Positions 4,392-57,383 of a DNA stretch of 64,000 nucleotides are shown here, piece after piece. Both the position numbers and the translations under genes were made by a program. The notes under the pieces were generated by a model. It was not told the origin of the DNA and searched no databases. It saw nothing but the letters and a program-made list of their open reading frames with translations. The first letter of the stretch is position 1. Every line of letters begins with the position of its first letter. The DNA lies in NCBI GenBank assembly GCA_965222225.1, contig CBDCTK010000002.1, positions 2,272,001-2,336,000 on the forward strand. Reading direction: 5' to 3'. Source of the DNA: Candidatus Poribacteria bacterium (GTDB taxonomy: Bacteria; Poribacteria; WGA-4E; JAJDTR01).

Positions 4392-4480
4392 GGGATTCTC
4401 TATCGCCCTAGGACTTCTATCGCACTGGGATTTCTACCGTCCTCGCTACTCACTCCGTTGATCTATTCGCTCGTTTGATC
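4392..4480 (-). repeat. Stack of partial or nested 37-nt hairpin elements
   Basis: Three GGGAT..CTATCGC starts and two ..TTGATC ends matching consensus GGGATCTCTATCGCNCTCNCTATYCGNTCGNTTGATC. Confidence 0.7.
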
Positions 4481-4534
4481 TCATCAGATTGTCGAGCCCT
4501 ACTTCGCCATCCACCTGCCGCAACCAGAGGATAT

Positions 4535-4940
4535 ATGTCTTTTGAACTGTACTTTTTAGTCTCATTCGTTACGGCAGGATCCGTCTCGTTTTGCGTTGTG
4601 AGTGTGTGCGAAGCGCCACTATCCATCCTCATGCGGCGCATCATTCAGAACGAAACCAGTCGCACGTTTACAAGGTATGTGAGATATGCGACCTATCTGG
4701 TTGGCATCTCACACGGCGTGACAGTAGATCCGCTAGGATTTGAACTCAGGGCACACATCTTTAAGCATGATTTCATTCACCATGTTTCCAATTACCCAGA
4801 GTGGTGGGTGTGGCTGATATGGATACTGACAATCATCATGCAATCCCTTACCGCAATAGCTTCTATAGTATTTAGTGTATTTAGTGTTTTTCATATTCGG
4901 CTTAATTGCATACATCACCGTTAAAGTGGGAGAAAAGTGA
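4535..4940 (+). pseudogene. Small 3-TM membrane protein, paralog 1, frameshifted by a 10-bp duplication
   Basis: MSFELYFLVSFVTAG... Removing GTATTTAGTG (4868-4877) restores ASIYLVFFIFGLIAYITVKVGEK*, colinear with paralog 2. Confidence 0.7.
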
Positions 4941-5460
4941 CACTTGAAATTAGGAGGAACAATGTTTTTTGAACTGGATTTCATAGTCTCGGTCATCGTA
5001 GCGGCAATCGTTTCTTTTGGCGTTATGATGGTGTTTGCACGCTTGATTTCTACCATCTTTGGGGACATCTTTCAGGACAAATTCCGCATAAACAGTGCGT
5101 TTATCAAGTACGTCAAATATGCCACCTTTTTGGTTGGTGTTTCGAGAGGCGCAATAGCATATCAGTTACGATTTAATATATGGTCACACTACGACACAAT
5201 TAAAGAGATTGCCCCGAACCTTGATTTTGATCGGGTTGCATTGCTGACTGCAACATACGTAACCATCATCGAAACGCTCCGAGCGCTTGCTTATATGTAT
5301 TTGGCGCTATTCTTAATAATCCTTATGGGACTTAGTAGTTAACTGCTTTTTGGTCGATTTGCTTGCTTTTCTCTTCTTAATGTACAATCATTTTAGACAG
5401 TGTTCGGAATCTTGATTCACACTAAAATACATCTCTATAAGAGAGAAATGGAGGCATATC

Positions 5461-5583
5461 ATGTTGACCAAGCGTTTGTACATGCTCGCGGGAGCATTGC
5501 GGGTTATCTGCGGGATTTTAATTTCCAACACTATGGGATTTTCAGCACACCATGATGTTGTCGTTGACAGAATATACCGATAG
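5461..5583 (+). CDS. Putative 40-aa passenger peptide inside the IS, convergent with the transposase
   Basis: GGAGG RBS; MLTKRLYMLAGALRVICGILISNTMGFSAHHDVVVDRIYR*; TTGCTT..TACAAT upstream; also present in copy 2 (22623..22745, minus strand). Confidence 0.4.
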   Translation: MLTKRLYMLAGALRVICGILISNTMGFSAHHDVVVDRIYR

Positions 5584-5601
5584 CCAAACAATTCATGTGG
5601 C

Positions 5602-6456
5602 TCAGGTGAAGCATTCATCAAAAAATCTTATGAAAATCTCATCATCTTTTCTGCGATTATATTTCCAGCAAGACTCCATGATATACAGTGGCAGCCACTT
5701 CTTGCTGTAGTGATGATGCGTTCCGTAGAATGACCTCTTGACACAAGCCCAAAACGACTCGATGGTGTTGGTGTGAGTTACGCCGTCCTCAGAAACATAT
5801 CTCTCTTGGTGATGGATAACATGTCTTTCGATATCTTCGTCCAGACTATTGTAAGAGCGAAATTCATCAGTCATAAGAATAGACTCATCGGGTGAGACAT
5901 TGCTAAGGATGAATTCTCTGATATTTTCACCAGATAGAACCTTCATGAATTTAGCAACCACCCGACCGCCTCTCTCGACTACGCCGATGACGGGAGATTT
6001 ATTTGTGCCTCTACCTCTCTTAGATTTTGCTCTGGGTTTGCCGCCGACATAGGTTTCGTCCGCTTCAACTATCCCTTTCAGCAATTCATCACTATCACTC
6101 ATTTTCTCACGGAGGCGCATTGCCATATACCAAGCGGACTTTTGATTCATGTCCAAGTCACGAGCAAGCTGACAACTCGATATGCTTTTCTTGGCATTGG
6201 AAAGAATTGAGATAGCCAAAAACCATTTCTGGAGAGGTATCTTGGTACCATGGAAGATGGTTCCTGCTGTAGCCGAAAAGCTAGATTCACAATCGTAGCA
6301 ATTCCAACCAGTAGTAATGTCGTTTTTGTTCTTGCGTCCAACTTTTTCACTGCCACAGTGGATACAGCAAACACCGTCCTTCCAACGTTTTTCCTCTATA
6401 AATCTGAGACAAGATTCTTGATTTGGAAACTCTTTCATAAGATTCAAAATGTCCAT
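5602..6456 (-). CDS. IS1595-family DDE transposase (ISXO2-like)
   Basis: N-terminal Zn ribbon (CIHC..CYDC), VEADETYVGG, MTDE, HTNTIESFW motifs. Confidence 0.95.
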   Translation of the reverse strand: MDILNLMKEFPNQESCLRFIEEKRWKDGVCCIHCGSEKVGRKNKNDITTGWNCYDCESSFSATAGTIFHGTKIPLQKWFLAISILSNAKKSISSCQLARDLDMNQKSAWYMAMRLREKMSDSDELLKGIVEADETYVGGKPRAKSKRGRGTNKSPVIGVVERGGRVVAKFMKVLSGENIREFILSNVSPDESILMTDEFRSYNSLDEDIERHVIHHQERYVSEDGVTHTNTIESFWACVKRSFYGTHHHYSKKWLPLYIMESCWKYNRRKDDEIFIRFFDECFT

Positions 6457-6665
6457 AGCAAACTCCTACGAGAAGAATAGTCACTATGGACATCTACGTG
6501 TGACGAAAAGATTTACGACAGGGTACCAAGTTTTATGTTTGTCGTCAGTCTAAAAGCTACAAGCTACTAATTCCGATCCTTATTGCATACATCATCGTTA
6601 CGGCGCGAGAGAAGAGTGACACCTGAGATTAGGACAATTCATGTTTAGCTCGACTTAGTAAAGTT

Positions 6666-6686
6666 GTAGGGTGGGCACCGCCCACC
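6666..6686 (+). repeat. GTAG-type REP palindrome
   Basis: GTAG-GGTGGGC-ACC-GCCCACC; relatives at 32098 and 55899. Confidence 0.7.
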
Positions 6687-6702
6687 ATCTCTTGTAGGGT
6701 GC

Positions 6703-6810
6703 GATAAAGAGAATGAATAATGAGAGCGATAGCGATCTTACCAGCCTTTGAAAGCACTAGCGCGATCAAGGGAGATCAAACGAATGAACAGCGAGTGGGA
6801 AAGAAATCTC
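6703..6810 (+). repeat. Two degenerate 37-nt hairpin elements (6703-6739, 6774-6810); the first replaces the centre of a REP
   Basis: GTAGGGTGC|37-mer|ACCAGCCTTTGAAA versus intact GTAGGGTGCGCACCGCGCACCAGCCTTTGAAA at 55899. Confidence 0.65.
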
Positions 6811-6833
6811 TGAAAAGCGTCGATAACCGCGTG

Positions 6834-8803: not shown

Positions 8804-9122
8804 ATCTTTCAAAAACAGTGTCCAGTGGAGAGTCAAAAGTGTTTCAACTCGCCGCTGACCACTACTTTTCCGACAAGATTTCCTGGAGTAGGAGCGATCT
8901 CCCGGTCGCGACATCCTGTCGCAAGCAAAATTTGCCTCGGCAGAAGACGAGAAATAATTCGCGCTACTACACACGAATTGTGCAAGTTCCAAATGTATTA
9001 TTCTTGGTTGAATTGACTATAAAAGCCTTTCAACCTTCACTAACCACACTTTTGCGGCAGAATCTCCTTGAGAGAGTAAAACGTGAATAACAAAGGGACA
9101 AGGATCGGTGGGCAGTATGGAG

Positions 9123-9351
9123 GGGATTTCTATGGCAATTCTATCACATTCATTGTCCGTTCGCTTAATCCTTCGCGATTCGCTCAACTGATCGGTGCAA
9201 AGAGTATATTCAACCACCAAATCCAAGACACTCTTTGCTTTGCAGAGGTGTTCGTAGGGATTTGTCCAATCCTAGCACGTCTGTACGTTGTGATGAAGGG
9301 GTTGCATAACAACGAAGAATCTCTATCGCAGTCGATATTTGCTCCCTTGAT
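9123..9351 (-). repeat. Degenerate 37-nt hairpin elements (9123-9193 stack; 9317-9351)
   Basis: Partial matches to the consensus, ending TTAATC, CTGATC and TTGAT. Confidence 0.55.
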
Positions 9352-9543: not shown

Positions 9544-12500
9544 TCAATCCGCCGGCTGCGGCGCCAGTCCTGGCTCCGGAATTGCGGGCTGTTCGGTCGT
9601 ATCGTGCTCTTGGCGTCCACGCTCGTGGAATTCGCCTCGAACATCCGGACTGAGCGTCCGCCAGATGAGCAACTGTTTACGAATCAAATTCAAGAACCGA
9701 CGATTCACGCGCTTCCACGACGCTATCTCGCCGCTCTCGCGGGTTATATCAAGATTGATCTGGTACAGTTCCTCCTCTTCCCCGCCAACGGGCGATGTCA
9801 TGAACCGAATGGATTGGCTCACGCCCAAATCGTACGGCGCCAACCACACCATCATACTCACGGCGTACGATTCCTTTTCATTGTCTCCAGAATCCTCTAT
9901 GAACCGACTGAATCCAACCTGGTTCGTGTAGAAATCACTTGCCGACTCGTCCGCGTGCGCATCAAAGTAGTCGCGCATGAAAATGTTCAGACCGAGAGAT
10001 TCTTCCGACAGCACCGTGAACGGCAGGTTGAAATGCCATTCATCGCCCGTAGGTTCCGGCAGCTTCCATTTCCGTTCCAGATCGGGAACCGCCATTCGGC
10101 TCGCTTTAATCGCCGGGTATAGTGTACTACCCACCACCACTATCATTACGATAATCGTCGCCACGACCGTGGACATGGACGAGTAGTTTAGGGTCAGACC
10201 GGCTAACCATCCGAAATGTACCAGCAGCGTCGCCACGACTTGACCCATCAGGTAACCGAGCACCGCGCCGATAATCGCATAAACACACGCCTCCGCGAGG
10301 AACAGAAACGCGATATGCACCGGCGCCAATCCGACGGAACTGTAGATGCTAATCTCTCTTATCCTTTCGTAGACCGCGCCAAGCATGGTGTTTAACACAA
10401 TCAGTGATGCAATGAGAATCGGAATTAACAGGTTCCCCATGCCGGAGAAGGAGGTCATCCCGATTGAGCTATAAAGATAGGTGTTTTTGTCTCGAGCGAC
10501 GAAGAAATCAAGCGCGATCCGGCCCATCAGCGGCGCCATAATGAGATCGAGTTTGTCAACCGCCCCCGGAATCGGCGGGTCCTCGGGCTGGGGCTCCATG
10601 TTGACAGCCACGGAGCGCAGCGTGCCGCCTTGGTTGATAATCACCTGATACGGCAAGATGGCAATACTATCGGGCGTCAAATGGATGTACTTCTGCAACT
10701 CGCTTGTGCTGCTCTGATTTCCCTGTGCGCCGCGCGAACTTTGCTGTTTCATCAATTGTTGATCGATGGGTGTCAGTTCCTCCCCATCGTTGTCGGTCAA
10801 ATCCTTAAACCCGATTCCGAGCACCCCGGTCACGGTAAAATCCGCGCCGTAAACGGAGACGGTCGCTTTCCCCATGTCGGATTCGACAATTCCTAGCAGA
10901 TCTGCCACGCCCTTTGGTAGAACACAGGCATAGGGCCATCGGGTGGGCCATTCGTCTTGATCCGCGGGATTAAACCATTTGCCATAGTAGAGATAGCGAT
11001 TGATGCCGGTGATTCGTGGCTCGGCGGCGCTCATTCCAACTAGCATGTTGGCTGAGAAGGTATAGGGTTGACCGCTCAATGCGTCCTCCGGCGGCACGGG
11101 ATCTTTGAAGTTGGGGGTGCGCCTCAATTCAACAAACGATTGATCGCCTGTACCCGATGATTGATACCAAGCGCGAGGTCCTACCGCGTTGTGAACCATC
11201 AACACCGACGACGGCTGATAAACCTTCAATTCATCCCCGTCCTTCTTGACTATGTATGTGTTCCTATTGCCAGAGATTTCCCATCTGTCTTCACCCGTAA
11301 CCGGCTGAATTACCGTCTGAGGCGAAAGGAGGAACCCACGTCTATCGAATTCCTGATGCAAATTCGTGGAAATCTCCTCCTCCGCTAATTCGCCCTGAAG
11401 TTGTGAATCTATGCTGAACAGGAATGTCGGCTCGGCGCTGACGCTTGCAAGAGCTCCTGCTTCGCTCAACTGAGCAATGGCATCCTCAATCTCGTCCGAT
11501 GACGTGCCTCGCCTCTTCAGCATCAACCGATAATCAAGCTCGGGAAGTTGTGTTTTTCTCAGATCGTTCATAATCGAGCTGATGACTGGTGCTTCAAGCG
11601 GGCGCCAGTATTGATCTCGAATCAACATCCCGGTGTAACGCGGTGTCACGGCTGGCAAGTTCGTCTTGTTGGGGCGCATGAATGTTCGCACAGAGGTAAA
11701 CGAGATTACGGTAAAGGTCAAAATCACCAGCGTGGCGCATGTCAGAATGGTGCGGCCTTTCCGTTTTCGCATGTTGGACACGCCGAGGCTGAACGCCGCG
11801 GCGGACGCCGCCAGACGCCCCACGTCCGCTTTGTAGACTTTCGAGCTTTCCTGCCTAATTTTTTCGAGTTGCTCCTCAAATTTCCGCAAGATGATGACGA
11901 TCACGAATATGGTCAGCACAAGGACGACGAAGGCAATAAGAATGATGACGGGGGTGGTCGTAATCTGAAACGCGGGGTGCACCTGTGCCAAGAAGAAGAA
12001 CACAATGATGAAGATCGCAGCTGCGCCGCCAATCCGTTTGTGCACGTCGGGTGATGCAAAGAGCAGGCGCTCCATAAAGTAGGAGAACGGCAGGAGTAAG
12101 GCTAGATAGAACATGACCCCATTGACGACATCGTTGCCCGTTTTCTTGACATCCGGATAGGCGCGCGATTCGTATCCCCACGCCGCTCGCGCGAGTTTCA
12201 TTGCCGTGGAATATTCTTTCTTGGCGAGAGCCGTTTCTGCTTGGTCCAAGTGTTCGTGTGCAAAGAAATGGAGCTGATCTAACCGATCACTGCTGATACC
12301 GAACCGTTTGTAGAGACTCGTACGGTTCTCGTCGAGCCACCACATATCTCGGACGACGACGTAGGGCGTGACGCGGATGGAGCCGTTCTCGCGGACGACG
12401 AACCCCGAGCCGGTATAGAGTGCCGGGTTTTTGGCGCCGCTCTTGCCCGCTTTTATGAGCAGGAGTCGTTGGCCGATTTGGCCGTAAGACATTGCAATCT

Positions 12501-15500
12501 TTATACGTGCATCCGGCTCGGAATAGACGAGCGCAATCGGCTCGGTGGCGGATACGCCTTGTTGCTGCCACGGTTTGGACATACCGTATTTTTCCGGTGG
12601 ACTGTCACTTAAGCCGTCGAACACCTGCAGTTCTCGCAGTGTGCGCAGGTATCGCTGATCGACGAGATCGTAGATGGTTGTGGAAACGCACGGGAAAACG
12701 ATGACACGGCAGCCTCGTCGCCGGTTTTGAATCCGGAGTTTGTTGGATGTCAGCTTGGCACCGAAGTTACCCAAATCCGGCGCATAGACGATATCGCCGG
12801 AGTCGGAGTCAAGGAGGTAGGCATCAACTTCCTGCAGGCCTCCTATTCGGTGTGTTGCTCGCCCCTCCATCGCAAGTCCCGGCACATCAAATTGAGCTTT
12901 GTTGTTTCCCATGGCAACGAGGTCGCCGCGAACACCCATCATGGTCTTGTGTTTGCGTCGTATAGCGACAATCGGATAGGGAACCGGCGTGTTTGGCAGC
13001 GCGCTCTCTCGGGCATCGTACTCCACGACATCACCGAACAGGTTGCAGTAGAAGTTTCCCACTTTGGCGCCGGTAGGCATCTTGGGATCCAGCATGGCTT
13101 GAATGAGGATGCCGGTAAGCGTTTTCACCTGCTTGTGCAAATTACCGTCATAGGTGAGATCCATTCTGTCAATTGTATCTAACGGGGTGTCGGTCAGCAG
13201 TCGTCCATCTCCGATTGTGGCGAACGTGATGCCGGTTTTGCCTATCAACGTGGCGACTTCGCTGTCAAAGGCGATTTTGCCGGGGATGTAGGTTCGCCAC
13301 GTTTTGGCGCCGGTGGCGCCAATGGCGTTGACGAAGTTCGTTTCGCCTCCAAGCCCAACGATTTCGATTAACGTTTGGATATCTTCAATTTCGTCGGGGC
13401 TTAGTTGAGAGGAATCTTCGTGACGCAGGGCAAGCATCATCGGCAGCCGGTTGAGGAGGCGAATTGTGTTTTTGCGTGTACGCTGCCCCTCGCGCAGGTC
13501 GTCTTGGATAAATCGCTTGACTTCGTTGCGGATGTATTCCATGTCTTTGAGCATTTCGTCCGAGGGCTCGCCGCGGGTTTGCATCTGTTCAAACTGCATC
13601 TTCATCAAGCGGGAGACATCGGTCAGGGCAACCAGCGATTCGTAGTGGTCGGTAATCAGGGTCTCCAGCGATTTTCCTTCAATGGCTTTCTTCGTCTCAA
13701 TCTCGAAAGCGGCTTCCCATTGGCTGTTCATGACCGCTTGTCGAATTTGGTCGTCAGTAAAACTCCAGAGCTTGCCGATGCGTACGCCGAAGTCGACATC
13801 GTTGGCGTACTGCATGAGTTTATTGCCGATAGTGGCAAACTCTCGCCGCAGCACGAATTCGGGCTGCTGGTCGTAGAACCATCCCTTGTTGAATACGGCG
13901 AATTTGTCGCTCTGTGTGGAGAGATCGACTGAAATAAATAAGGAGGTGTAGTAGCGATTGAATAGGTCTTGAAGGGAGATGGCTTGCTCAACGGCGGCGA
14001 TATTTCGGTCATATTCCGATTTGCTGAATCGGGCAAGAATTGCGACGCGGGACTGGATATTGCGGATGCGTGAGTTTCGCAGGGTGAGCATGTTGTCGCG
14101 GAGCAGGATTTTTACGTCGTCCGGGAAGTCGCGGTCAAAGTTGTCCAGCCCGTTCCTCAGGTTCTGGAGTTCCACAATATCCTCACGCGCCTTCTGTTTG
14201 ACAAACTGGAGCAGCCTGCGTTCTTCAAGGTGGGCAACAATCTGATCGCGCGCTTCAAAGGCAGATTCCACTTCGTCACCCTCTAGGTAGTGACGCAACA
14301 CGAGTATCTCTTCCTCAAAATACGGACGATTTACCGACGCATGCCAATCCGACTCCAGTAAGGATTCCAGACGCACCCGCTCAAGTCGCGCGTTCCGCAT
14401 GGCAATTTCAAATATTCCCTGTTTATCCTTCGTCAACTCCTCAATCAGGATGGCATGGGATTCCTTTATCACTCCGCCACCGGCAGTCTCGTGAACATTC
14501 GCCAACTTCTGACGCAGTTGTGTCTGAATCCCCTTTAGTCGACTCAGAATGGCTTTACTGAGAAACAGCCCAAACGTCTCGTCGACATTATCAGGCATGT
14601 AGTCACGTTGCGTATGCAATCGGCTTATACTCGCCTTGATTGGTGATTCAAAATCCGCGTCCGGAGAAATTCTTTGAATGGCGTTCTCAAGTTGAAGTTT
14701 TTCTTGGGCAATATAATCGTCTAAGGTTCTATTCGCCTGCCTAGCGCGATGCACAACGTTACGCGCGTCCTTCATAGCATTCAAACCGTGGAAATCGAGG
14801 TGTCGGTCTAGCAGCCGTTCCGGGGCGTATTGGAGCGCGAATTTTCTGGAATCGGAAAACTCCCAATCTGCTAGGTATCCAGACAGCCGTTGCAAATCTT
14901 CGGCTTCGCGTGTGCCAGCCAGATCTGACGGAATCGGGAGATAATAGGCACCATCTTGCCCTTTTTCCGGTTTGAGGTAGGAATCATCCGGCTGTCGTCC
15001 GTAGCTTCCGCCGACACGTCCCACATTTAAATCGGCTTCCAATTGCTCCAACACCCACGCGTCCAACCGCGCCATAGGCAGCGCAACGTTGTCTACCAAC
15101 TCCAATTGTGCTTCTCGAGATGCCGCCAACGCCATGGTCTGAAGTCCATGCATTCGGTCAACGACCACGCGCAAAAATTGTGTGGTTTGCAATGCGTCTT
15201 TCTTGAATTTGACGAGATTGGTTTCAAGAGTGGACTTCTCCTCCTGCGTATACCCCTGCTTCTCGCGTTTTTTCACGACTCGACGGCGCCTTTTCTGCTT
15301 CTCTTTGAAGTCTCTTTGTTTGTTGCGCAATGAGTTGATCCGGTTGTACGTTGTTCCAACATCGGCTACCGTGGATTTCAGTGATTGAATGGCATCGTCA
15401 AGTTGGTGGACTTCGTAGAAGAATTCGGGGGGCAGATCGACAAGCACGCTGCGGTCAATCGAGAGAAGCAGTTTTCGACTCAACTCCTTGAACGGGCGGA

Positions 15501-17226
15501 GATCGAGTCCCAGCCCTTTTGCCATTCCACCCATGGTCGGAATCCCGGGGGCTTCGCCTGAATTGATGTTGAAGTCCGCCCTCGCGATAATGTCTTGACC
15601 TATTCCGAACATAAAGAAACGCATACCCGCAAGCCCTTGGAAGTGCCCGTCTGTGGCGACGAATAGCATGGAGCGTCCAGGACGGTATTCCTCTTTGCTG
15701 AGGATGCGCGCGACCTCCAAAAGCCCGGCAACTCCGCTGGTCGGATCGGCGCCCGGAGCAAGTGATGGGATTACGGACATGGAGTCGTAGTAGGCAGTGA
15801 CGACAACCATCTCGTCTTTCAAAATTGGGTCACTGCCTTCCAAGAATCCGCGGATGTTTTGTCCAATCCGGCGTTCCCACGTCATGGTAGAGTTCAGACG
15901 AACCATTAACGGCTGTGGTTGGGAATTCGGATTGGCGTTCTCTACATCGGCTTCGCCTAACAGCTTAAGTAACAGGTCCGCATCCGTTCTTGAAATCCAA
16001 AACCGCGGGATGTTGGCAGGGACGGTCAAGAATTTGTTCTCGGCTTCGCCGCGAATAGTGGTTTCGGGTTCTATGAACACAACCGCTTTCGCGCCAAGCA
16101 TGGCGGCATTTATCCACTGTGTGCCGGAATTGAAGTCTACAAGCAAAACGCTTCCGCGCGGAATGAAGAGACTGGATTCGGAGGAGGCAACGAACTCGCC
16201 CTCTTCATCAATTGAACCGTCGTTGTTATTGTCAACCCCATCGTAGGCATCGCCAGGTGTTTCGTCAACATACCCATCGACATCGTTATCAATGCCGTCA
16301 CTGTCCCAATAGACTATGTCGGCGAGTAATGGAATTTCACCATACTCGTCTATCTCGCTGTCTTCGTTGTTGTCAACTCCGTCTTCGGTTTTCTGCAGGT
16401 GGCTATTGAGCACATCGTCGGTGATACTTCCGACGGTAACGCGATGCCGGTGGGCAATGTTTTCCAGCGTATCGCCCTTCTGGACAGTGTACCAGAATCC
16501 ACCGATGTCTTTGCCGTTGAAGTCCTCCAGAGTGGCGTCGCCCCCGTAGAAGAGCGGGGCGCGTAAACCGCCAGTGGGAACGAAAACCGTGTTGTTCGTC
16601 GTTAGCGCAACTTCGTCGGGCTCGTCAATTTCGCCATCCCTGTCGTTATCTTGTCCATCAGTGGCTTGATCGCGCAGATATTGATTATGAGAATCTTCAA
16701 GAATGGAACGGGGCTCTACCTGATACGACTTGGCAATGGATTCCACGGTTTCGCCGTCTTGCACGAGGTGTTTGATCCCCGTGGGCAGTAGGGAGGTGCG
16801 GACGAGGTTGGGCCACACGGGCCATATTTTTACGGTCTTGAGTACCTCATCGTTTGAGGAAAGCACCTCCAGTCTTCCGTCGCCGTGGTCAACGGGAACA
16901 GCTATCCGAAATTCGCGGCTCTCGACGTTCTGTAAGCCGGTTTCGACGAACCGATCGAACACGTACTTGCTTGCGGCAGCCGCTTCGGGATAACCTGTGA
17001 CCCGACTCTCAAGGCTAGAGAGCCGCGCAATATCCTTTCGCATTCTGCCAATATCAACTTCATCCCGAATTTTAACCGCGATTTCAGAGAGACCGACGGT
17101 CGAATCCGTTTCCGCAGTCAGAGGTTTGGGCACAAAGGGCAATGTGATTAAACTAATGCATAAAATATAGAGAACCCTATTCTTGAGTACAGTCCGAAGT
17201 TTATGTTTGTTTCTGAGAGTTTTCAT
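9544..17226 (-). CDS. Giant (2560 aa) membrane protein: M28-peptidase-like domain with LysM and Asp-rich inserts, long helical insert, FtsX-like ABC permease C-terminus
   Basis: SRVTGYP, VTAYYDS, APGAD; two LysM-like motifs; four DGxDNx..DE repeats; SNMRKRKGRT; VYERIREISIYSSVGLAP (FtsX signature). Confidence 0.85.
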   Translation of the reverse strand: MKTLRNKHKLRTVLKNRVLYILCISLITLPFVPKPLTAETDSTVGLSEIAVKIRDEVDIGRMRKDIARLSSLESRVTGYPEAAAASKYVFDRFVETGLQNVESREFRIAVPVDHGDGRLEVLSSNDEVLKTVKIWPVWPNLVRTSLLPTGIKHLVQDGETVESIAKSYQVEPRSILEDSHNQYLRDQATDGQDNDRDGEIDEPDEVALTTNNTVFVPTGGLRAPLFYGGDATLEDFNGKDIGGFWYTVQKGDTLENIAHRHRVTVGSITDDVLNSHLQKTEDGVDNNEDSEIDEYGEIPLLADIVYWDSDGIDNDVDGYVDETPGDAYDGVDNNNDGSIDEEGEFVASSESSLFIPRGSVLLVDFNSGTQWINAAMLGAKAVVFIEPETTIRGEAENKFLTVPANIPRFWISRTDADLLLKLLGEADVENANPNSQPQPLMVRLNSTMTWERRIGQNIRGFLEGSDPILKDEMVVVTAYYDSMSVIPSLAPGADPTSGVAGLLEVARILSKEEYRPGRSMLFVATDGHFQGLAGMRFFMFGIGQDIIARADFNINSGEAPGIPTMGGMAKGLGLDLRPFKELSRKLLLSIDRSVLVDLPPEFFYEVHQLDDAIQSLKSTVADVGTTYNRINSLRNKQRDFKEKQKRRRRVVKKREKQGYTQEEKSTLETNLVKFKKDALQTTQFLRVVVDRMHGLQTMALAASREAQLELVDNVALPMARLDAWVLEQLEADLNVGRVGGSYGRQPDDSYLKPEKGQDGAYYLPIPSDLAGTREAEDLQRLSGYLADWEFSDSRKFALQYAPERLLDRHLDFHGLNAMKDARNVVHRARQANRTLDDYIAQEKLQLENAIQRISPDADFESPIKASISRLHTQRDYMPDNVDETFGLFLSKAILSRLKGIQTQLRQKLANVHETAGGGVIKESHAILIEELTKDKQGIFEIAMRNARLERVRLESLLESDWHASVNRPYFEEEILVLRHYLEGDEVESAFEARDQIVAHLEERRLLQFVKQKAREDIVELQNLRNGLDNFDRDFPDDVKILLRDNMLTLRNSRIRNIQSRVAILARFSKSEYDRNIAAVEQAISLQDLFNRYYTSLFISVDLSTQSDKFAVFNKGWFYDQQPEFVLRREFATIGNKLMQYANDVDFGVRIGKLWSFTDDQIRQAVMNSQWEAAFEIETKKAIEGKSLETLITDHYESLVALTDVSRLMKMQFEQMQTRGEPSDEMLKDMEYIRNEVKRFIQDDLREGQRTRKNTIRLLNRLPMMLALRHEDSSQLSPDEIEDIQTLIEIVGLGGETNFVNAIGATGAKTWRTYIPGKIAFDSEVATLIGKTGITFATIGDGRLLTDTPLDTIDRMDLTYDGNLHKQVKTLTGILIQAMLDPKMPTGAKVGNFYCNLFGDVVEYDARESALPNTPVPYPIVAIRRKHKTMMGVRGDLVAMGNNKAQFDVPGLAMEGRATHRIGGLQEVDAYLLDSDSGDIVYAPDLGNFGAKLTSNKLRIQNRRRGCRVIVFPCVSTTIYDLVDQRYLRTLRELQVFDGLSDSPPEKYGMSKPWQQQGVSATEPIALVYSEPDARIKIAMSYGQIGQRLLLIKAGKSGAKNPALYTGSGFVVRENGSIRVTPYVVVRDMWWLDENRTSLYKRFGISSDRLDQLHFFAHEHLDQAETALAKKEYSTAMKLARAAWGYESRAYPDVKKTGNDVVNGVMFYLALLLPFSYFMERLLFASPDVHKRIGGAAAIFIIVFFFLAQVHPAFQITTTPVIILIAFVVLVLTIFVIVIILRKFEEQLEKIRQESSKVYKADVGRLAASAAAFSLGVSNMRKRKGRTILTCATLVILTFTVISFTSVRTFMRPNKTNLPAVTPRYTGMLIRDQYWRPLEAPVISSIMNDLRKTQLPELDYRLMLKRRGTSSDEIEDAIAQLSEAGALASVSAEPTFLFSIDSQLQGELAEEEISTNLHQEFDRRGFLLSPQTVIQPVTGEDRWEISGNRNTYIVKKDGDELKVYQPSSVLMVHNAVGPRAWYQSSGTGDQSFVELRRTPNFKDPVPPEDALSGQPYTFSANMLVGMSAAEPRITGINRYLYYGKWFNPADQDEWPTRWPYACVLPKGVADLLGIVESDMGKATVSVYGADFTVTGVLGIGFKDLTDNDGEELTPIDQQLMKQQSSRGAQGNQSSTSELQKYIHLTPDSIAILPYQVIINQGGTLRSVAVNMEPQPEDPPIPGAVDKLDLIMAPLMGRIALDFFVARDKNTYLYSSIGMTSFSGMGNLLIPILIASLIVLNTMLGAVYERIREISIYSSVGLAPVHIAFLFLAEACVYAIIGAVLGYLMGQVVATLLVHFGWLAGLTLNYSSMSTVVATIIVMIVVVGSTLYPAIKASRMAVPDLERKWKLPEPTGDEWHFNLPFTVLSEESLGLNIFMRDYFDAHADESASDFYTNQVGFSRFIEDSGDNEKESYAVSMMVWLAPYDLGVSQSIRFMTSPVGGEEEELYQINLDITRESGEIASWKRVNRRFLNLIRKQLLIWRTLSPDVRGEFHERGRQEHDTTEQPAIPEPGLAPQPAD

Positions 17227-18486: not shown

Positions 18487-18536
18487 GGGATCTCTATCAG
18501 GACTTGCTATCGCCCTCCTTATTTGGTCGGTTGATC
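18487..18536 (-). repeat. Nested 37-nt hairpin elements
   Basis: GGGATCTCTATC | AGGACTTGCTATCGCCCTCCTTATTTGGTCGGTTGATC | GCAC. Confidence 0.75.
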
Positions 18537-18663
18537 GCACGCGACAACTAGTGGTCAGTGGCCAGTTATTGTAATCGACGCAATTCGGTTTTTAGCCGTC
18601 AAATTTAGTCCACGTCGGGGCAAGATGCCCCTCCCACCGGGTTGAAATGCGGATGGTGGGCAG

Positions 18664-18714
18664 GGGATCTATATCGCACTCGCTATCCGCTCGTTTGATC
18701 GGTGCGCACCCTAC
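18664..18714 (-). repeat. 37-nt hairpin element abutting a half REP
   Basis: GGGATCTATATCGCACTCGCTATCCGCTCGTTTGATC followed by GGTGCGCACCCTAC. Confidence 0.8.
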
Positions 18715-19372
18715 AACATACTGTCGCAGTTTATGCGTTACTACTTGAAAAGGGCGTCGAAGCTTGTCGTAGCTTGGCTTCGTGCATGATTTTTGCACCG
18801 TGATGAGCGTGCGATTCTGTGCGATTTTCTGCGACTATAAATTTGACCCCTCTCCCCGCGACGCTGAAACGACTGCCCAAATGCGTGTCAGGCGCTATAA
18901 CTGGACGCCGCCGAGATCCACTCGTTTTCCGACAAAGCCGGCGCGGACAAGGGGCAAGAACAGTTGAACAGGACAGAAGATTTAGAAACAGATTCGACAT
19001 TTTACTCTGTTGTTTTTTTCCTATTATCACGGCAATGAACCGCGCGCAAGGGTGACCGGATTGAGTTCGCGGCGAATCGCTCTGAAGGCATTTTCACTTC
19101 TCCAGTTAGCGCGGAAGCCTTTGACAACGCGGGTGCAGCGGATGCGCAGGTGAACAGAGTGCATACGAGACACATAGGAGTTTCGTCCCGGCGGCGTAGC
19201 GCCGGCAGGAGTAGGGTCGCGATCAACGTTAACCGGCTACATTATACTATACATGTGTATAGTTTTCAATTATAAAACGTGGGAATTATCGCAATCAATT
19301 TGAACGCATAGGGCAAACTCGCCTTGCTGCAGCAGTTTGATTCGCACACTTAACTCGGAAGAAGCGAATTGT

Positions 19373-27968: not shown

Positions 27969-28021
27969 GATCAAGCGACCGGATAGGGAGCGCGATAGAG
28001 ATCCACTCCAATAGAGATTCC
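27969..28021 (+). repeat. 37-nt hairpin element plus a partial tail
   Basis: GATCAAGCGACCGGATAGGGAGCGCGATAGAGATCC. Confidence 0.8.
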
Positions 28022-29330: not shown

Positions 29331-31820
29331 ATGAAAGATTATCAACCTCTCGATTTGTCTGCGTTGTGTAACGCCGGTCTGGATATACTGAACGATGGCG
29401 CGAGTGTGCCAATCGGAGAGCAGACGCTTCGCGGCTTGCCGTTCATCGTCGGCTCAGCCGATCCGGAGCGCGGCGGGGTCTGTCTCATCGCTTTCGATGC
29501 CAAGCGCGGGAATGTGACTATCCCTATCAATCAATCCGCCCGTCGCGTGATTATCGCGCATACCTTGCTTGAGTCGGAACTATCGGAAGGAGGGGCGTTG
29601 GCAAAGCCGATTGCAGACTACGTCTTCCGGATATCGTGCGGCGATGAGGTTCGCGTACCCATCCGTGAGAGATTTGAGATTGCCGTTCCCTCCTATGGCG
29701 GTTTGCCGTTCCGTGCACTTCCGGACCAACTGGATTCACTCTACCCGCGCAATGAGGGAAAATGGAGAGACGCCGGACACCGACAGACCGAGGTAACGCA
29801 AGGCAGACCGCGCGGTTTCTTTCTTTGGTCATGGGAAAATCCACATCCCGATACCCCCATCAAATCGCTGGAGGTCATCCCGACCGGAACACGTTTTGTC
29901 ATCGGAGCAATCACACTCGGACATGTAGACGAACATCCCTTTGTACGGCAGGGCCGTCGCGAAACGCGCATTATCCTAACCAACCCGGAGGACGCGGAAA
30001 AACCGTTCGACCTTGATGTGGAGGTAGATCGAGGGCTCGCAACCTATGTCCACGCCTTGCCGGAGGCTTCTGCGGATGATTTTGTCGACGATTCCTTCAA
30101 AGGCTGGGGCGAGGCACAGAACTCGAAATCTAGCCCCGCCTACACCGAGATTGCGGCGCTCCCCTCTGCGACGGTGACGGTTAAGCAAGGGGAGGAGGAG
30201 GTCGGTAAGGTTAAATGGAGGGATGTGCAAGAAAAAGGTTCCGTCGAGATACCGCGGATGCGCGTGGAACTGCTTGACCGCGGCAGAAATTGGGTGCACG
30301 TCACTGTTCTTGATGAAGAAACCGACAAGCCCGTGCCGTGCCGAGTTCATTTCCGATCGCCCGAAGGCATCGCTTATCAGCCGCACGGTCACCACAATCA
30401 GGTCAACTCGAATATGGAGACTTGGCACATTGATGTAGGCGGCGATGTACGCATGGGACAGATTACTTACGCTTATATAGACGGCACCTGCCAAGGCTGG
30501 CTGCCGCGCGGCGAGGTCATCGTCGATGTCGCACGCGGGTTTGAATACGAGCCGCTTCGGACGCGAGTAAAGGTTGAACCGGGGCAGCGCGAACTCACAC
30601 TGCGCCTCAAACGCTGGATCAACATGAACGAACAGCAATGGTTTAGCGGGGATTCGCATGTTCACTTCCTCTCCACGCAGGGCAGCCATACAGAGTCGCA
30701 GGGCGAAGACCTGAACGTGGTCAACTTGCTGCAATCGCAGTGGGGAAGCCTCTTCACAAACACCGAGGAATTTACGGGCAAGGCGAGCGTCCTGCAGGAC
30801 GGCAATAACATTGTCTATATCACGCAGGAGAACCGCCAACACTTCCTCGGACATTTAATCCTTTTGGGGCTTAAGAAACCGGTCATGCCGTGGTGTAGTG
30901 ATGGCGCCGGAGAAGCCGAACCCGGCGGAACGTTGGAAGTCACTATGAGTGACTGGGCGGACCAGTGCCATGCGCAAGGCGGTACCGTGATTATCCCGCA
31001 TCACCCGAATCCGAACGGCGAACCGGCGGCGCTAATTGCCACCGGCAGAGCGGACGGCGTCGAAATGCTGCGCCACGATCCGTTCAATCACCTTGAGTAC
31101 TACCGTTACCTAAACTGTGGCTATCGTTTACCGTTAGTTGGCGGCACAGACAAGATGTCGAGCGATGTACCGGTAGGCATTTATCGCACGTACGCTCGCC
31201 TCTCTGAAGACGAGGAATTTAATTACGACAACTGGTGCAAGAACGTCGCCCGCGGACGCACGTTCCACAGCGGCGGTCCCATCATCAACCTGACCGTAGA
31301 AGGCAATCAGATAGGCGACACGGTACAGATGTCCGGTCCCGGCACAGTTGAAGTCGAGGCATGGGCGGAGAGCATCTTCCCGATTCACACGCTTGAGCTC
31401 GTCCAAGCCGGGCGCGTGGTGGCATCAACAGAAGACGCGAAGGGCGCCCGACGATTGGAATTGAAGGCGAAGGTGAAGGCGCCTGGACATACGTGGGTGG
31501 CGGCAAGGTGCGGCGGTCCCAACTATACGAGCGTCCAGCACCATGACGGTTGGCAGCGCGGCATATTTGCGCACACCTCCCCGGTCTATATCGCTTGCGG
31601 CGGCGAATGGTGGATGTTCGACAAAGACGCGGCGCAATATATGCTTACGCTCATTGACGGCTGTCTGACCTACATCCGCGAGACCGCCCCGCTACACGAG
31701 CAAGGCACGGCGACACACCATCACGGCGAGCCGGATCACGCTGCCTACCTCGAACGTCCCTTTATCGAAGCGCGCGAGGCAATCCATCAACGCATGCACA
31801 AGCTGGGTATGCCTCACTAA
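29331..31820 (+). CDS. CehA/McbA-family PHP-like metallohydrolase
   Basis: SGDSHVH, QENRQHFLGH, PHHP, YYRYLNCGYRLPLVGGTD, AHTSPVY. Confidence 0.85.
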   Translation: MKDYQPLDLSALCNAGLDILNDGASVPIGEQTLRGLPFIVGSADPERGGVCLIAFDAKRGNVTIPINQSARRVIIAHTLLESELSEGGALAKPIADYVFRISCGDEVRVPIRERFEIAVPSYGGLPFRALPDQLDSLYPRNEGKWRDAGHRQTEVTQGRPRGFFLWSWENPHPDTPIKSLEVIPTGTRFVIGAITLGHVDEHPFVRQGRRETRIILTNPEDAEKPFDLDVEVDRGLATYVHALPEASADDFVDDSFKGWGEAQNSKSSPAYTEIAALPSATVTVKQGEEEVGKVKWRDVQEKGSVEIPRMRVELLDRGRNWVHVTVLDEETDKPVPCRVHFRSPEGIAYQPHGHHNQVNSNMETWHIDVGGDVRMGQITYAYIDGTCQGWLPRGEVIVDVARGFEYEPLRTRVKVEPGQRELTLRLKRWINMNEQQWFSGDSHVHFLSTQGSHTESQGEDLNVVNLLQSQWGSLFTNTEEFTGKASVLQDGNNIVYITQENRQHFLGHLILLGLKKPVMPWCSDGAGEAEPGGTLEVTMSDWADQCHAQGGTVIIPHHPNPNGEPAALIATGRADGVEMLRHDPFNHLEYYRYLNCGYRLPLVGGTDKMSSDVPVGIYRTYARLSEDEEFNYDNWCKNVARGRTFHSGGPIINLTVEGNQIGDTVQMSGPGTVEVEAWAESIFPIHTLELVQAGRVVASTEDAKGARRLELKAKVKAPGHTWVAARCGGPNYTSVQHHDGWQRGIFAHTSPVYIACGGEWWMFDKDAAQYMLTLIDGCLTYIRETAPLHEQGTATHHHGEPDHAAYLERPFIEAREAIHQRMHKLGMPH

Positions 31821-31920
31821 TTGCCTGAGAGTACTGAGGTGAATCATAAGTTATACCATTTCGATTGATTAACAGCGCATATGATTTTTAATCATATCAT
31901 TCTCTTTCTCCGTGGGCGGG

Positions 31921-32118
31921 GATCAAGCGAGCGAATAGCGAGTGCGATAGAGATCCCCTTGCCCCGCATCGGTAAGATTTGATTAACGCTATTAATGCAC
32001 TCCAAATATAGAGAAATGGTATAAGTAGGGGATAACAAGGGATTTTTATCGAGATCCTTATTCAATCGCTCGATCGCTGCTAGCGCTTTCGGAGGCTGGT
32101 GCGCGGTGCGCACCCTAC
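31921..32118. repeat. Intergenic mosaic: two opposed 37-nt elements (31921-31957, 32039-32075) and a GTAG REP (32098-32118)
   Basis: GATCAAGCGAGCGAATAGCGAGTGCGATAGAGATCCC; GGGATTTTTATCGAGATCCTTATTCAATCGCTCGATC; GGTGCGCGGTGCGCACCCTAC. Confidence 0.8.
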
Positions 32119-32173
32119 AGGGTGTTACATCTGTAACCAAAATGTGTAGATCCCAATTAGGTAGGAGGAATGA

Positions 32174-42825: not shown

Positions 42826-42918
42826 GATCAAGCGAACGATCAGCTGAGCGGATAGCGAAGGCGATAGAGATCCCCTTGCCCCGCATTGGAGAGATTTGAT
42901 TGACGCCAATAATGCACT
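42826..42918 (+). repeat. 37-nt hairpin element (42838-42874) with a partial copy and a 3' flank shared with 31958-32000
   Basis: GATCAGCTGAGCGGATAGCGAAGGCGATAGAGATCCC, then CTTGCCCCGCAT..GATTTGATT..AATGCACT. Confidence 0.8.
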
Positions 42919-44827: not shown

Positions 44828-44849
44828 GCACTGCGGCGCGAGACAACGG

Positions 44850-52535: not shown

Positions 52536-52561
52536 CATCTTTTAACAGAAGGAGAAATATC

Positions 52562-52930: not shown

Positions 52931-52944
52931 GGATTGCCTTTGTT

Positions 52945-52984
52945 CTCTATTAAACGCCTTGGCGTATCGAGGCGTTTAATAGAG
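52945..52984 (+). terminator. 15-bp-stem hairpin after the small secreted protein
   Basis: CTCTATTAAACGCCT-N10-AGGCGTTTAATAGAG; no long U tract, so it may be a stabiliser or attenuator. Confidence 0.6.
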
Positions 52985-53008
52985 GGTATTAGACCTTGGA
53001 GACAACAA

Positions 53009-53995: not shown

Positions 53996-54039
53996 GCTAC
54001 TTTACCAGTAGAAACCATAGAAGTCTTCCCTACCCCCTT

Positions 54040-54250
54040 TCACTTGCCATATTTGAACCGCCCAATAGCATTTGTTCTGCGAGTTCGGCACGGGTATAAC
54101 GTACAAGTATCTTAGGGTCACGCCACCGCCCGGCAGTTTGCATATCAACAAGCGTAGCCCCAGTTTGCGCAACAACATCGCCGAACCAACCCGCAGGGAG
54201 TGTCCCGAGATAAACCCACCAATACCCGATGCCATACCTGTTCGCGCCCA
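54040..54250 (-). pseudogene. Tyrosine recombinase 3' remnant C
   Basis: FISGHSLRVGSA / AQTGATLVDMQTAGRWRDPK..YTRAELAE / AIGRFKYGK* across two frameshifts. Confidence 0.85.
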
Positions 54251-54445
54251 CGTTCCATTCTTTTGTACTTCATATAACGTCTCGGACGCTCGTCCATCAT
54301 TTGACCAAACAGCATGAATCAAGCAGTTACAGTGAGATTTCTGTTGATTAACGAGTGCAAAACAGATAAAATGGCTTTCGTCTATCTCCAAAATGAGCAT
54401 CATACCTCGAAGCGATAATGTACCAGATTCACGATAAACCCAACC

Positions 54446-55876: not shown

Positions 55877-55898
55877 TCTTTACTCTACTCGTACATAT

Positions 55899-56022
55899 GT
55901 AGGGTGCGCACCGCGCACCAGCCTTTGAAAACGCCCGTCAGCAGGTTTGGATCAAGCGACCGATTAGGGAGTTGAATCTTCTATCGCCCTCTTTATTCAG
56001 TCGATTGATCGATAGAGATCCC
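55899..56022. repeat. GTAG REP (55899-55919) plus a 37-nt element (55950-56022) carrying an inverted second copy (55974-56010)
   Basis: GATCAAGCGACCGATTAGGGAGTT | GAATCTTCTATCGCCCTCTTTATTCAGTCGATTGATC | GATAGAGATCCC. Confidence 0.85.
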
Positions 56023-56155
56023 CTTGCCCCGCTGACGTTGCGCGGAGACAAGGCTTCTAACTCCGCTCCACACAAGATTCTTTACCCTGTCCACGTAATC
56101 ATTGTCATTGCACCTGAATTTTAGAGACGTGGTATAACAACAATGGAGAAACAGC

Positions 56156-57019
56156 ATGACCCAACCCCTGCGTATTGTATCAATCGGCGCGCATCCGGCT
56201 GATATATTCGATCAATCCGGCGGCACTATGGCTCACCATACGAGTCGAGGCGATTATGTCGCCTGCGTCGTATTGACTCATGGCGCTCGCGTGCACGACG
56301 CCGTCATTAGCGACGCCATGTTTCATCGTGAGGAGATTCCGGATCAAGCCGAATTGATGAAGTTAATGGAAGATCGATCGGATGTCAAGGCAGAGGAAGT
56401 GCGCGCCGCATGCAATATCGTGGGAGTCAAGGACATCTACTTCTTTGGAGCGGACGATGCGGTACTCCTTGTCACGGAGGACATGGTCAGACGCTTGGCG
56501 AGACTGTTACGCGAGTTGCGCCCCGATGTCGTTTTGACCCATTTCCCCAAAGAAAACGACGCGCTCACCAACGCGCACGCCATCGCAGGGCAAATCGTCA
56601 TGCACGCCATTTCCCTCGCTGGCAGCGTGGATCCCGGCGATCGGCATCCCCCCCACCGCGTGGCGGCAGTCTTTTTCTTTGGCTCGGGCGCGGCTGCAGT
56701 ACCCGCCAACGTATGGCGATCGGAGGGCGGGTTTTACAACGATGTATTCATTGACATCACGGATGTTGTGGACAAGAAACTCGCGGCATTGGACTGCTTG
56801 GTGAGTCAGGGTTATAGCGGAGCTTACGCCCGCAAGCGGATTGAAACCAGTGACGGCGCGTTCGGCGTAGCGGGCGGATGCGCTTACGCGGAAGGTTTCA
56901 TCTCCATGAAGGCTGAGACCCACTACTATCTGCCGGTTACGGAACATGCGCTTGAAACAGCTCGTTCATCCGACCACGAGCTGATAAAGCAACGATCCTA
57001 TCGAATCCCGGTTGATTGA
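56156..57019 (+). CDS. PIG-L/LmbE-family deacetylase
   Basis: IGAHPAD, RPDVVLTH, FIDITDVVDKKLAAL, YAEGF. Confidence 0.88.
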   Translation: MTQPLRIVSIGAHPADIFDQSGGTMAHHTSRGDYVACVVLTHGARVHDAVISDAMFHREEIPDQAELMKLMEDRSDVKAEEVRAACNIVGVKDIYFFGADDAVLLVTEDMVRRLARLLRELRPDVVLTHFPKENDALTNAHAIAGQIVMHAISLAGSVDPGDRHPPHRVAAVFFFGSGAAAVPANVWRSEGGFYNDVFIDITDVVDKKLAALDCLVSQGYSGAYARKRIETSDGAFGVAGGCAYAEGFISMKAETHYYLPVTEHALETARSSDHELIKQRSYRIPVD

Positions 57020-57211
57020 AGATTCTTTGATATAGTAATTAGCATTCATATTCGCACATATATGAATTGTAAGAAACTTCCAAGAATAAACTTACACTTC
57101 TATTTAGATCTGACCCGCTCCTGCCGGATTAACAAATCCAGCAAATCTTTATCTAGCTATTCAGCTTCCATTCTTTCGCTCTGGAGGAGTTCAAAGGAAT
57201 GAATATTGACC

Positions 57212-57383
57212 GATCAACTGAGTGGATAACGAAGGCGATAGTAAATCTTGATAGCGAATCCCGATAGAGATCCCCGCCGCTTTCACTTCCCATAGAAGAA
57301 CCGCGCCTTATTTTTTGAGTTAAGATCCGGAGCGATCCCACGAACTAGCAACTGAGCGATTAGCGAAGGCGGTAGAAGATACC
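57212..57383 (+). repeat. 37-nt element with two stacked extra tails (57212-57274) and a degenerate copy (57346-57383)
   Basis: GATCAACTGAGTGGATAACGAAGGCGATAGTAAATCTT | GATAGCGAATCCC | GATAGAGATCCC. Confidence 0.75.

Follow-up and report, generated by a model that had tools for sequence, protein, structure and literature searches.

Insertion sequences (ISs) of the IS200/IS605 family are cut and pasted by the transposase TnpA with nucleotide precision. The attC sites of integrons are recognised as folded single strands in which pairing and unpaired bases are conserved but the sequence is otherwise free. IS1397/ISKpn1, IS621 and other members of the IS110 family insert into the hairpins of repetitive extragenic palindromes (REPs), partly at the loop. 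Elhai et al. in 2008 reportedly described SDR4-6 of the Nostocaceae, small dispersed repeats (SDRs) of 21-27 nt that were proposed to be mobile and for which the enzyme is not known. Here we analyse a short dispersed repeat in a 64,000-nt stretch of DNA from Candidatus Poribacteria bacterium (hereafter the window; C2:2272001-2336000 of genome G000, which comprises 5.70 Mb in two contigs with 50% G+C). We judge that the repeat is probably a mobile DNA element, non-coding and non-autonomous, that belongs to Candidatus Poribacteria and is REP-like but non-canonical.

The element resembles REPs and bacterial interspersed mosaic elements (BIMEs), and the REP doublets known as REPINs with their REP-associated tyrosine transposases (RAYTs), in its length (20-40 nt), intergenic position, hundreds of clustered copies, patchy distribution and a hairpin kept by compensating changes. 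In the broad sense of the term it has the traits of a REP, being short, extragenic, high in copy number, hairpin-forming and conserved in structure. Indeed, the original prediction, made from the letters of the window, of a REP-like repeat outside the GTAG type agrees with what the genome holds: about 1,100 intergenic, clustered copies have the same orientation bias as the GTAG REPs of G000, and the 5' arm has the consensus GATCAA with no GTAG/GTGG or CGTC tag of its own. Unlike the GC-rich palindrome of a REP, the stem of the element consists of 2-bp steps split by obligatory purine-purine oppositions, and because the stem is interrupted in this way, palindrome or RNAMotif-type rules for REPs such as those in the Methods of PMC6006769 would miss it. 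REP catalogues seek GC-rich palindromes with a GTAG tag and, as the present family shows, can miss repeats that are abundant and selected for structure. In contrast to a REPtron, no Y1 transposase gene examined in G000 and its relatives has the element as its own flanking repeat, and there is no co-occurrence with the three Y1 classes compared across genomes. In contrast to REPINs, neighbouring copies are mostly direct (271 direct and 74 inverted pairs less than 300 bp apart in G000) and form no REPIN doublets.

With the ends of IS200/IS605 elements and with palindrome-associated transposable elements (PATEs) the repeat shares an imperfect hairpin on one strand, single-stranded arms, the lack of target duplication and a link to the replication strand. 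It differs from them in being a single hairpin of 30-37 nt with no distinct left and right ends and with variable target flanks. G000 has no TnpB and no IS200-type copy flanked by the element, and the strand concerned would be the opposite one to that of IS200/IS605 if the GC skew is of the usual kind. Compared with attC, the element lacks a complementary R''/R' core pair (its 5' arm only loosely resembles RYYYAAC and has no 3' partner), is much shorter, and is dispersed rather than arranged in cassette arrays; nor did an integron integrase context come to light, though no search aimed at intI was made. Unlike a miniature inverted-repeat transposable element, it makes no target duplication and its arms are not inverted repeats of each other. 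Unlike an orphan repeat of a clustered regularly interspaced short palindromic repeat (CRISPR) array, it is dispersed, variable and present in both orientations, and the true CRISPR repeat of G000 is a different 37-mer. The ISs that target REPs are autonomous elements of 1-1.5 kb with a transposase, whereas the present element has 35 nt and no gene. The Nostocaceae SDRs, compared by description only, are likewise tiny, dispersed and found to insert into other short repeats, but differ in phylum and sequence.

REPs are known insertion targets according to PMC3116915, which cites the ISs that target them in general terms, and HIP1 is given as the insertion site of SDR5 in PMC5861425. In agreement with the original prediction, which recognised no described family, Rfam 15 gave no match at gathering score in the window and none at E values up to 1 in positions 31850-32100. 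We found no published Poribacteria REP and no published REP containing G.A pairs; the 'atypical secondary structures' that PMC6006769 mentions for subclass 2.6 and class 3 may bear on this.

Sequence, boundaries and fold of the repeat

The repeat has a 30-nt core (GATCAA, then NN-GA-NN-GRATA-NN-GA-NN, then GC-GATAG) followed by a lineage-specific tail of 5-7 nt at positions 31-37. A position weight matrix (PWM) made without gaps from 302 distinct full copies and used at a threshold of at least 12 bits found 1097 matches in G000, a density of one per 5 kb; the reversed genome gave none. The 12-nt tail motif, allowing two mismatches, occurs 19 times in the window (4.67 expected; none of 100 shuffles reached 19) and, allowing one mismatch, 656 times in the whole genome. 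Information content is elevated only over these 12 nt and the 25 nt before them, which agrees with the 37-nt length originally assigned to the element. On the other hand, the conserved unit is shorter. When copies whose 17-nt stem region is identical are compared in pairs (3614 in all), identity begins at position 1 in 1082 and at position 0 in 505; at the right side it ends at position 30 in 1056 and at position 31 in 624, and only 575 pairs reach positions 36-37. Moreover, in a second genus positions 1-30 are unchanged and the tails are TCTTCTC or runs of T instead of AGATCCC. This genus is g4 in our sample of 41 relatives, in which genera are denoted by g and a number; g1 is the genus of G000 and g4 belongs to another family. 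The '37 nt' is thus better read as a 30-nt core with a variable tail.

The purine strand of the element is under selection to fold as a hairpin. Among the 666 column pairs of the 302 distinct copies, mutual information is highest for 11:19 (1.13 bits), 8:22 (0.91), 7:23 (0.63) and 12:18 (0.41), exactly the four pairs that had been proposed to covary from the copies in the window, and the fifth-ranked pair has only 0.19 bits. The same four again ranked highest in 1084 copies taken with 20-nt flanks, which contained no further long-range covariation in the flanks. Each of the four pairs occurs as three or four Watson-Crick or wobble types. Pairing reached 89.1% in an alignment of 23 copies (55.9% after shuffling; none of 500 shuffles was as high), 93.2% for the four-pair helix in 66 distinct copies, and 93.4% in 34 distinct copies of the second genus (63.9% after shuffling; again none of 500 as high), whose loci were six from g4 and ten others taken as g4. 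The covariation score was 0.88-0.97 in the true register and at most 0.25 when the partners were slid by 1-3 columns.

Of 3840 pair cells in 960 distinct copies, 3147 are Watson-Crick, 448 are G:T, 87 are A:C and 158 are other combinations. The tolerance of G:T but not of A:C identifies the folding strand as the purine strand, in agreement with the predicted fold on one strand. The covarying pairs alternate with purine-purine oppositions that are strictly kept: A6.G24 in 864 of the 960 copies, G9.A21 in 874, A10.G20 in 906, and G13.A17, which closes a 3-nt loop, in 911. In the alignment of 66 copies, these oppositions form standard pairs in just 0.4%. The near-invariance of G9.A21/A10.G20 and the G.A closure of the loop had been noticed in the window and extend to the whole genome, and compensatory pairing around fixed oppositions bears out the claim that the repeat is selected for its structure. 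Tandem sheared G.A pairs prefer the context 5'-Y-GA-R-3', which is found in 463 of 874 and 484 of 893 copies on the two sides (about 53-54% each). The pattern is compatible with a hairpin stabilised by tandem sheared G.A pairs.

The pairing may extend further outward. ATC at positions 2-4 could pair with GAT at positions 26-28 (A2-T28, T3-A27, C4-G26), G1 lies opposite A29 in 823 of 960 copies, and deviations at 4:26 are mostly T:G (50 of 70). In five of six copies the minimum free energy (MFE) structure with RNA parameters was the hairpin together with this outer helix. Because the outer ATC/GAT segments hardly vary, they are compatible with pairing but do not prove it; the core in its entirety may form a single 29-nt hairpin, with steps of two or three pairs alternating with purine-rich oppositions. 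A different outer helix, GATC (1-4) with GATC (32-35), was rejected since 4:32 was unpaired in 37 of 64 copies in the alignment of 66. With about 1,000 copies and four independently varying pairs, the family offers a data set for what an enzyme acting on single-stranded DNA reads in a hairpin.

Insertion sites, strand bias and distribution

Comparison between species indicates that the element is mobile, multiplying within genomes and differing in presence from species to species, in line with the original prediction; the evidence consists of 34-36-nt presence/absence differences and of nested insertions. An insertion of 35 nt in unique, non-hairpin spacer DNA was found only in G007 among five species compared. 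A copy of 36 nt is nested in the orthologue (locus L101) of the window copy at 18664 and is absent from G000. A further 36-nt copy lies in a REP-D hairpin (L103) and a net addition of 34 nt in an 11-bp hairpin upstream of cas1 (L213); both hairpins are empty in G000. At four clean empty/filled sites there was no target duplication, and the junctions had 1-3 ambiguous bases. Overall, insertion adds 33-36 nt, removes 0-4 target bases and leaves 1-3 nt of junction ambiguity. Orthologous spacers of congeneric species have entirely different copy content. Empty-site calls at the orthologous spacers of window positions 31820-32173 were abandoned, the spacers being too rearranged.

New insertions prefer unpaired G or GA positions in or close to the tip of a DNA hairpin, in GTAG REPs, in CRISPR repeats and in the element's own hairpin. 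In G000, REP-A is represented by 14 empty copies (23 nt) and 16 with one insert (55-58 nt), the inserts having many stem variants, and REP-B by 171 empty and 24 filled copies. In both families 36-37 nt stand in place of 2-4 tip bases, and in all 40 filled REPs with a single insert the purine strand is on the GTAG strand. A GTAG is found at most 16 nt upstream of 281 of the 1097 copies, with a peak at -8, where it belongs to the host REP. The flanks of a copy are complementary over at least 4 bp in 87 of 685 cases, compared with 29 of 685 when partners were shuffled.

The element also inserts into itself. A truncated head directly precedes 248 of 936 copies, ending at position 23 (89 cases), 12 (39), 19 (38), 17 (32), 18 (17) or 10 (16), and the remainder of the interrupted copy is found downstream of the nested one. 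The break usually falls immediately ahead of an unpaired G or GA in the older hairpin. We attribute the head-head-tail-tail arrays of the genome to repeated self-insertion. A small repeat living inside others is thereby documented, which explains these mosaics.

The CRISPR repeats of G000 have likewise been invaded, with copies in the repeat loop. By damaging CRISPR repeats, and by fragmenting short-read assemblies, the element affects an uncultivated lineage of sponge symbionts.

As to the REPs themselves, at least five further GTAG-tagged families occur genome-wide, with window examples at 6668-6692, 18640-18663, 18701-18720 and 55900-55925. REP-A starts with GTAGGCGGGGCA.., REP-B (about 170 copies) with GTAGGGTG[CG]GCA.., REP-C with GTAGGAGCGATCTCC.., REP-E with GTAGTAGGCA.. 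and REP-F with GTAGGAGGGAAT... Apparently, every GTAG REP family is linked to a different Y1 gene. The CRISPR array lies at about C2:2705500-2707750 (L230:3500-5750) and has a 37-nt repeat that starts with GTAGCAACC and ends with GAAAG. It adjoins cas1 (C2:2702926-2704113, L230:926-2113; Cas1 Pfam 1e-69), and the element has inserted into the loop of several repeats of the array, with a cluster of 12 copies among the insertions.

Only 33 of 933 copies lie inside crude open reading frame (ORF) calls, which cover 76% of G000. The numbers of copies in tandem, divergent and convergent spacers scale with the length of these spacers, with no preference for the 5' or 3' side of genes, and in spacers between tandem genes 312 copies are co-oriented with their neighbours and 292 anti-oriented. 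Orientation follows the local GC skew instead: regions of negative skew have 277 plus and 94 minus copies, and regions of positive skew 116 plus and 259 minus. Counted by cluster, the numbers are 195/68 and 77/177 (odds ratio 6.6). The GTAG strand of empty REP-B copies has the same skew bias (53/17 and 15/42). Since orientation is blind to genes and tracks GC skew as that of GTAG REPs does, action on single-stranded DNA is favoured. Genes in positive-skew regions number 834 on the plus and 529 on the minus strand, which suggests that an excess of G marks the leading strand here. The GC skew of contig C2 flips sign many times with no two-arm pattern, and repeat orientation flips along with it, which suggests many inversions or assembly joins after the bias arose.

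The scan of the genome and its relatives that had been proposed together with the prediction found, besides the 1097 copies in G000, the element in all nine relatives of g1 and all four of g4, and in none of g3 (0/10), g6 (0/7), g5 (0/3) and g7 (0/3); one g2 genome had six matches. With G000 included, the element is kept in all 10 species of g1. In a sample of the phylum 17 of 151 genomes had a match, and family f2 had none in 100 genomes. A scan with the exact pattern, one genome per species, found at least 101 stretches, and all 80 of the matches listed were from Candidatus Poribacteria bacterium; viral contigs gave no exact match to the pattern. Sporadic matches in g2, g6 and g12 were discounted, being on few small contigs that may be mis-binned. 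Among the genomes searched, the family is thus found only in two Poribacteria genera.

Proposed mobilising enzyme and rival explanations

We propose that the fold would be the signal by which a trans-acting protein recognises the element on DNA that replication has left single-stranded; a copy that lost the fold would then leave no descendants, and the compensatory pattern would follow. The leading candidate for the mover is a HUH Y1 (RAYT-like) enzyme supplied in trans, a tentative choice to which we give clearly less than an even chance. The original prediction had looked to HUH transposases and RAYTs, and here it found no backing: no Y1 gene examined carries the element as its own repeat, and none of the three Y1 classes compared has a matching distribution.

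Five Y1_Tnp loci are present in G000, all outside the window. L001 encodes an intact Y1 with the motifs of subclass 1.2, a subclass listed without REPs in Table 1 of PMC6006769, and is flanked by inverted copies of the element. It was rejected as the REPtron of the element, because its own conserved inverted flank is a GCCCC-loop-GGGGC hairpin with a CTATA tail; the same type of flank surrounds subclass-1.2 orthologues in g4 and in g6, including genomes without the element, and the element copy beside L001 interrupts this flank repeat. L003 is a broken Y1 gene flanked by a GTAG REP, L004 is flanked by another, different GTAG REP, and L002 has no flanking REP. L005, a Y1 fragment with inverted element flanks, was also rejected, since intact orthologues in five relatives lack the copies. 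Likewise, the copies near Y1 genes of G001 and of four g4 genomes sit inside the genes' own GTAG REPs. Among the 41 genomes, subclass-1.2 Y1 genes occur in g6 (7/7), g3 (5/10) and g4 (2/4), the RYCYENP type in g6 (6/7) and g1 (6/9), and the L005 type in g6 (4/7) and g4 (2/4). No genes of the IS110 family or for TnpB were found in G000.

The subclass-1.2 Y1 genes (YIKNQ..HH) deserve a remark of their own. In at least three genera they have inverted multi-copy flanks, made of GCCCC-loop-GGGGC and an ACATGT/ACAGGT-TATAG tail (L001:1325-1337 and 1880-1905; L053-L058 at about 1390-1500 and about 1990-2090), and gene and flanking hairpin may be an unrecognised REP-RAYT pair.

Several observations weigh against a mobile element recognised by its fold. 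No cognate enzyme was found: at four of the five Y1 loci of G000 there is either no flanking repeat or a different one proper to the locus, and none of the three Y1 classes is co-distributed with the element across the 41 genomes. The junctions, with 33-36 nt added, 0-4 lost and 1-3 nt of microhomology, are fuzzy, unlike the precise ones of IS200/IS605. Most copies have their folding strand on the C-rich strand, which would be the template of the leading strand if the skew is of the usual kind, and this counts against a simple IS200-type mechanism; IS608, for its part, is reported to prefer the lagging-strand template. The excess of G:T could partly reflect strand-biased C-to-T mutation and not selection. 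Predicted stability is low, with MFE values of -0.8 to -3.6 kcal/mol and z about 0, no better than shuffles, under DNA parameters, and a marginal -3.8 to -8.5 kcal/mol (z -1.2 to +0.1) under RNA parameters; these parameter sets may undervalue G.A pairs, and we take the low values to mean that the fold would be read by a partner and is not stable alone. Finally, neither an intermediate of transposition nor a de novo insertion was observed. Contigs from three DNA runs and one RNA-library run of metagenomes break at repeats, and none joins across a copy, so that they are uninformative on insertion.

How the copies came to move may be explained in other ways. We regard as possible, if doubtful, that the element represents a new ultra-small mobile class of about 35 nt, a parasite of hairpin tips whose hairpin with G.A oppositions is its sole cargo and whose mover would be an as yet unrecognised enzyme or mechanism, neither a cognate RAYT nor of IS200 type. 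It is unlikely, in our estimation, that no dedicated enzyme is involved and that copies arise by template switching at replication, when a stalled polymerase jumps by way of 1-3 nt of microhomology, copies the repeat and returns. Such switching would account for the junction ambiguity with loss of 0-4 target bases, for new copies that start exactly at a G, GA or GAT of the interrupted copy, for insertion at hairpin apices and for the strand bias, and the searches of G000 yielded no enzyme. However, it leaves unexplained the sharp common left end at position 1, the insertions in unique non-hairpin DNA far from other copies and the restriction to two genera; it should also perfect the arms of a quasi-palindrome, yet the G.A oppositions are strictly retained. 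Less likely still is a selected fold that acts in RNA, as a protein-binding or stability motif or by letting the element spread via an RNA intermediate. Structured RNAs often contain tandem G.A pairs, wobbles of the G.U type are tolerated, the fold is the MFE structure with RNA parameters (0.45-0.76 of the ensemble), and contigs from the RNA library cover the region, though such contigs cannot show transcription. But orientation is random with respect to genes (312 and 292) and tracks GC skew instead, Rfam gave no matches, insertion into the element's own copies, REPs and CRISPR repeats takes place at the level of DNA, and the only reverse transcriptase (RT) gene found in G000 stands beside a type I restriction gene. 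The encoded RT-domain protein has 671 aa (C2:4499560-4501572, next to an HsdR-like gene) and is probably a defence-island RT.

A tyrosine recombinase working on folded single strands could also be the mover, by analogy with attC, which is recognised by shape and not by sequence. The candidate is a 2.1-kb unit of two genes, ORF1 (about 340 aa, no known function) and a tyrosine recombinase, present in five copies in G000 with 81-90% DNA identity (83-100% for the recombinase gene; Pfam Phage_integrase 5e-16), at C2:458879-461202 and four paralogous places. No other gene found has a close subfamily with a distribution even roughly like that of the element: at an identity of at least 70% the recombinase occurs in g1 (9/9), g4 (3/4) and just one of seven g6 genomes, with none that close among the matches listed from other genera. 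Yet the unit does not end in element copies, two of the five have no element nearby and the others hold copies within inserted repeat mosaics, and the recombinase gene of the copy at about 460 kb is itself interrupted in-frame by the element. Moreover, G035 has the gene without the element, G015 has the element with only a partial match to the gene, and the association rests on two clades and is confounded by kinship. We give this recombinase a small chance. We put it no higher that the host keeps the copies for a chromosomal function, as strand-oriented sites for an architectural or replication protein of the kind proposed for REPs and BIMEs, with mobility secondary. An orientation bias of about 70-75% with GC skew, the high conservation of the unpaired purines and retention in all 10 species of the genus would fit such a role; but orthologous spacers of congeners differ fully in copy content, the element was not found in most Poribacteria searched, the insertions have broken up CRISPR repeats and other REPs as well as one recombinase gene, and the density of copies follows intergenic length. 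If the activity that mobilises the REP-like element is found, an enzyme that can deliver 35 nt of single-stranded DNA to the tips of hairpins would be interesting for its mechanism and possibly for practical use.

Copies and neighbouring features in the window

A covariance model (CM) built from 23 copies recovers the same 14 copies in the window as the PWM, all situated between long ORFs. Reading by eye adds one split copy (55950-55974 with 56011-56022) and one degenerate copy (57346-57382). The original count of about 15 or more copies stands in this sense, except that the entries at 4392, 9123 and 18487 proved to be extra tail units of neighbouring copies. The copies are as follows.

4392-4463, minus strand: full copy (4427-4463) with two extra tail units (4392-4426); CM 45.0 bits; tail matches at 4393-4404 and 4427-4438
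6703-6739, plus strand: degenerate copy, two of four pairs kept; CM 42.8 bits, PWM 25.1 bits
6774-6810, plus strand: degenerate copy, three of four pairs kept; CM 43.2 bits, PWM 36.8 bits
8749-8785, minus strand: full copy, four of four pairs kept; CM 52.1 bits
9123-9197, minus strand: copy (9134-9170) with an extra tail (9123-9134) and a truncated head (9171-9197) abutting its 5' side; CM 37.7 bits
9316-9352, minus strand: copy, three of four pairs kept; CM 45.5 bits
18487-18536, minus strand: copy (18500-18536) with a second tail unit (18487-18498); CM 47.6 bits
18664-18700, minus strand: full copy at the tip of a GTAG REP-B-type hairpin, with REP arms on both sides (60-nt filled REP-B); CM 53.8 bits
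27969-28021, plus strand: full copy (27969-28005) with a tail-like unit (28010-28021), within a GTAG REP; CM 55.0 bits
31921-31957, plus strand: full copy close to the consensus, at the tip of a REP-A hairpin, among the filled REP-A; CM 58.8 bits
32039-32075, minus strand: diverged copy; CM 44.1 bits
42826-42874, plus strand: truncated head of 12 nt (42826-42837) followed directly by a full copy (42838-42874); CM 53.4 bits
55950-56022, plus strand: split copy, head 55950-55974 and tail 56011-56022, from reading of the sequence; tail match at 56011-56022
55974-56010, minus strand: reverse-oriented copy nested between head and tail of the split copy; CM 46.4 bits
57190-57274, plus strand: truncated head (57190-57211), full copy (57212-57248) and two more tail units to 57274, nested like a Russian doll; CM 50.9 bits; tail match at 57263-57274
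57346-57382, plus strand: degenerate copy with a diverged head, four of four pairs kept, found by eye and under the PWM and CM thresholds

The tandem tails at 4392-4463, 18487-18536 and 57212-57274, and the reverse copy within the split copy at 55950-56022, are attributed to repeated self-insertion. The junction at 42826-42874 is of the same type as the 39 cases in the genome with a head ending at position 12. At the relative locus L101 the orthologue of the copy at 18487-18536 has a different stem variant, and the REP that houses the copy at 27969-28021 has an intact orthologue in G005 among the orthologous spacers compared.

The copy at 31921-31957 is part of a composite repeat of about 175 nt (31848-32022), made of the REP-A hairpin with the element in its tip and of flanks, which recurs at many sites of G000 and in all congeners searched with 80-92% identity. 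A paralogue of the tyrosine recombinase, 61% identical, lies at 62182-63117, with a fragment at 59976-60365. A single ORF of 2560 aa occupies 9544-17226 on the minus strand. Window positions 5319-6575 contain an ORF for an IS1595-family transposase (5602-6456, minus strand; DDE_Tnp_IS1595 1e-36). In contigs from two related metagenome runs 5318 is followed directly by 6576, without the 1257 nt between, and depth is several-fold higher there; the segment looks like an active or recently moved IS.

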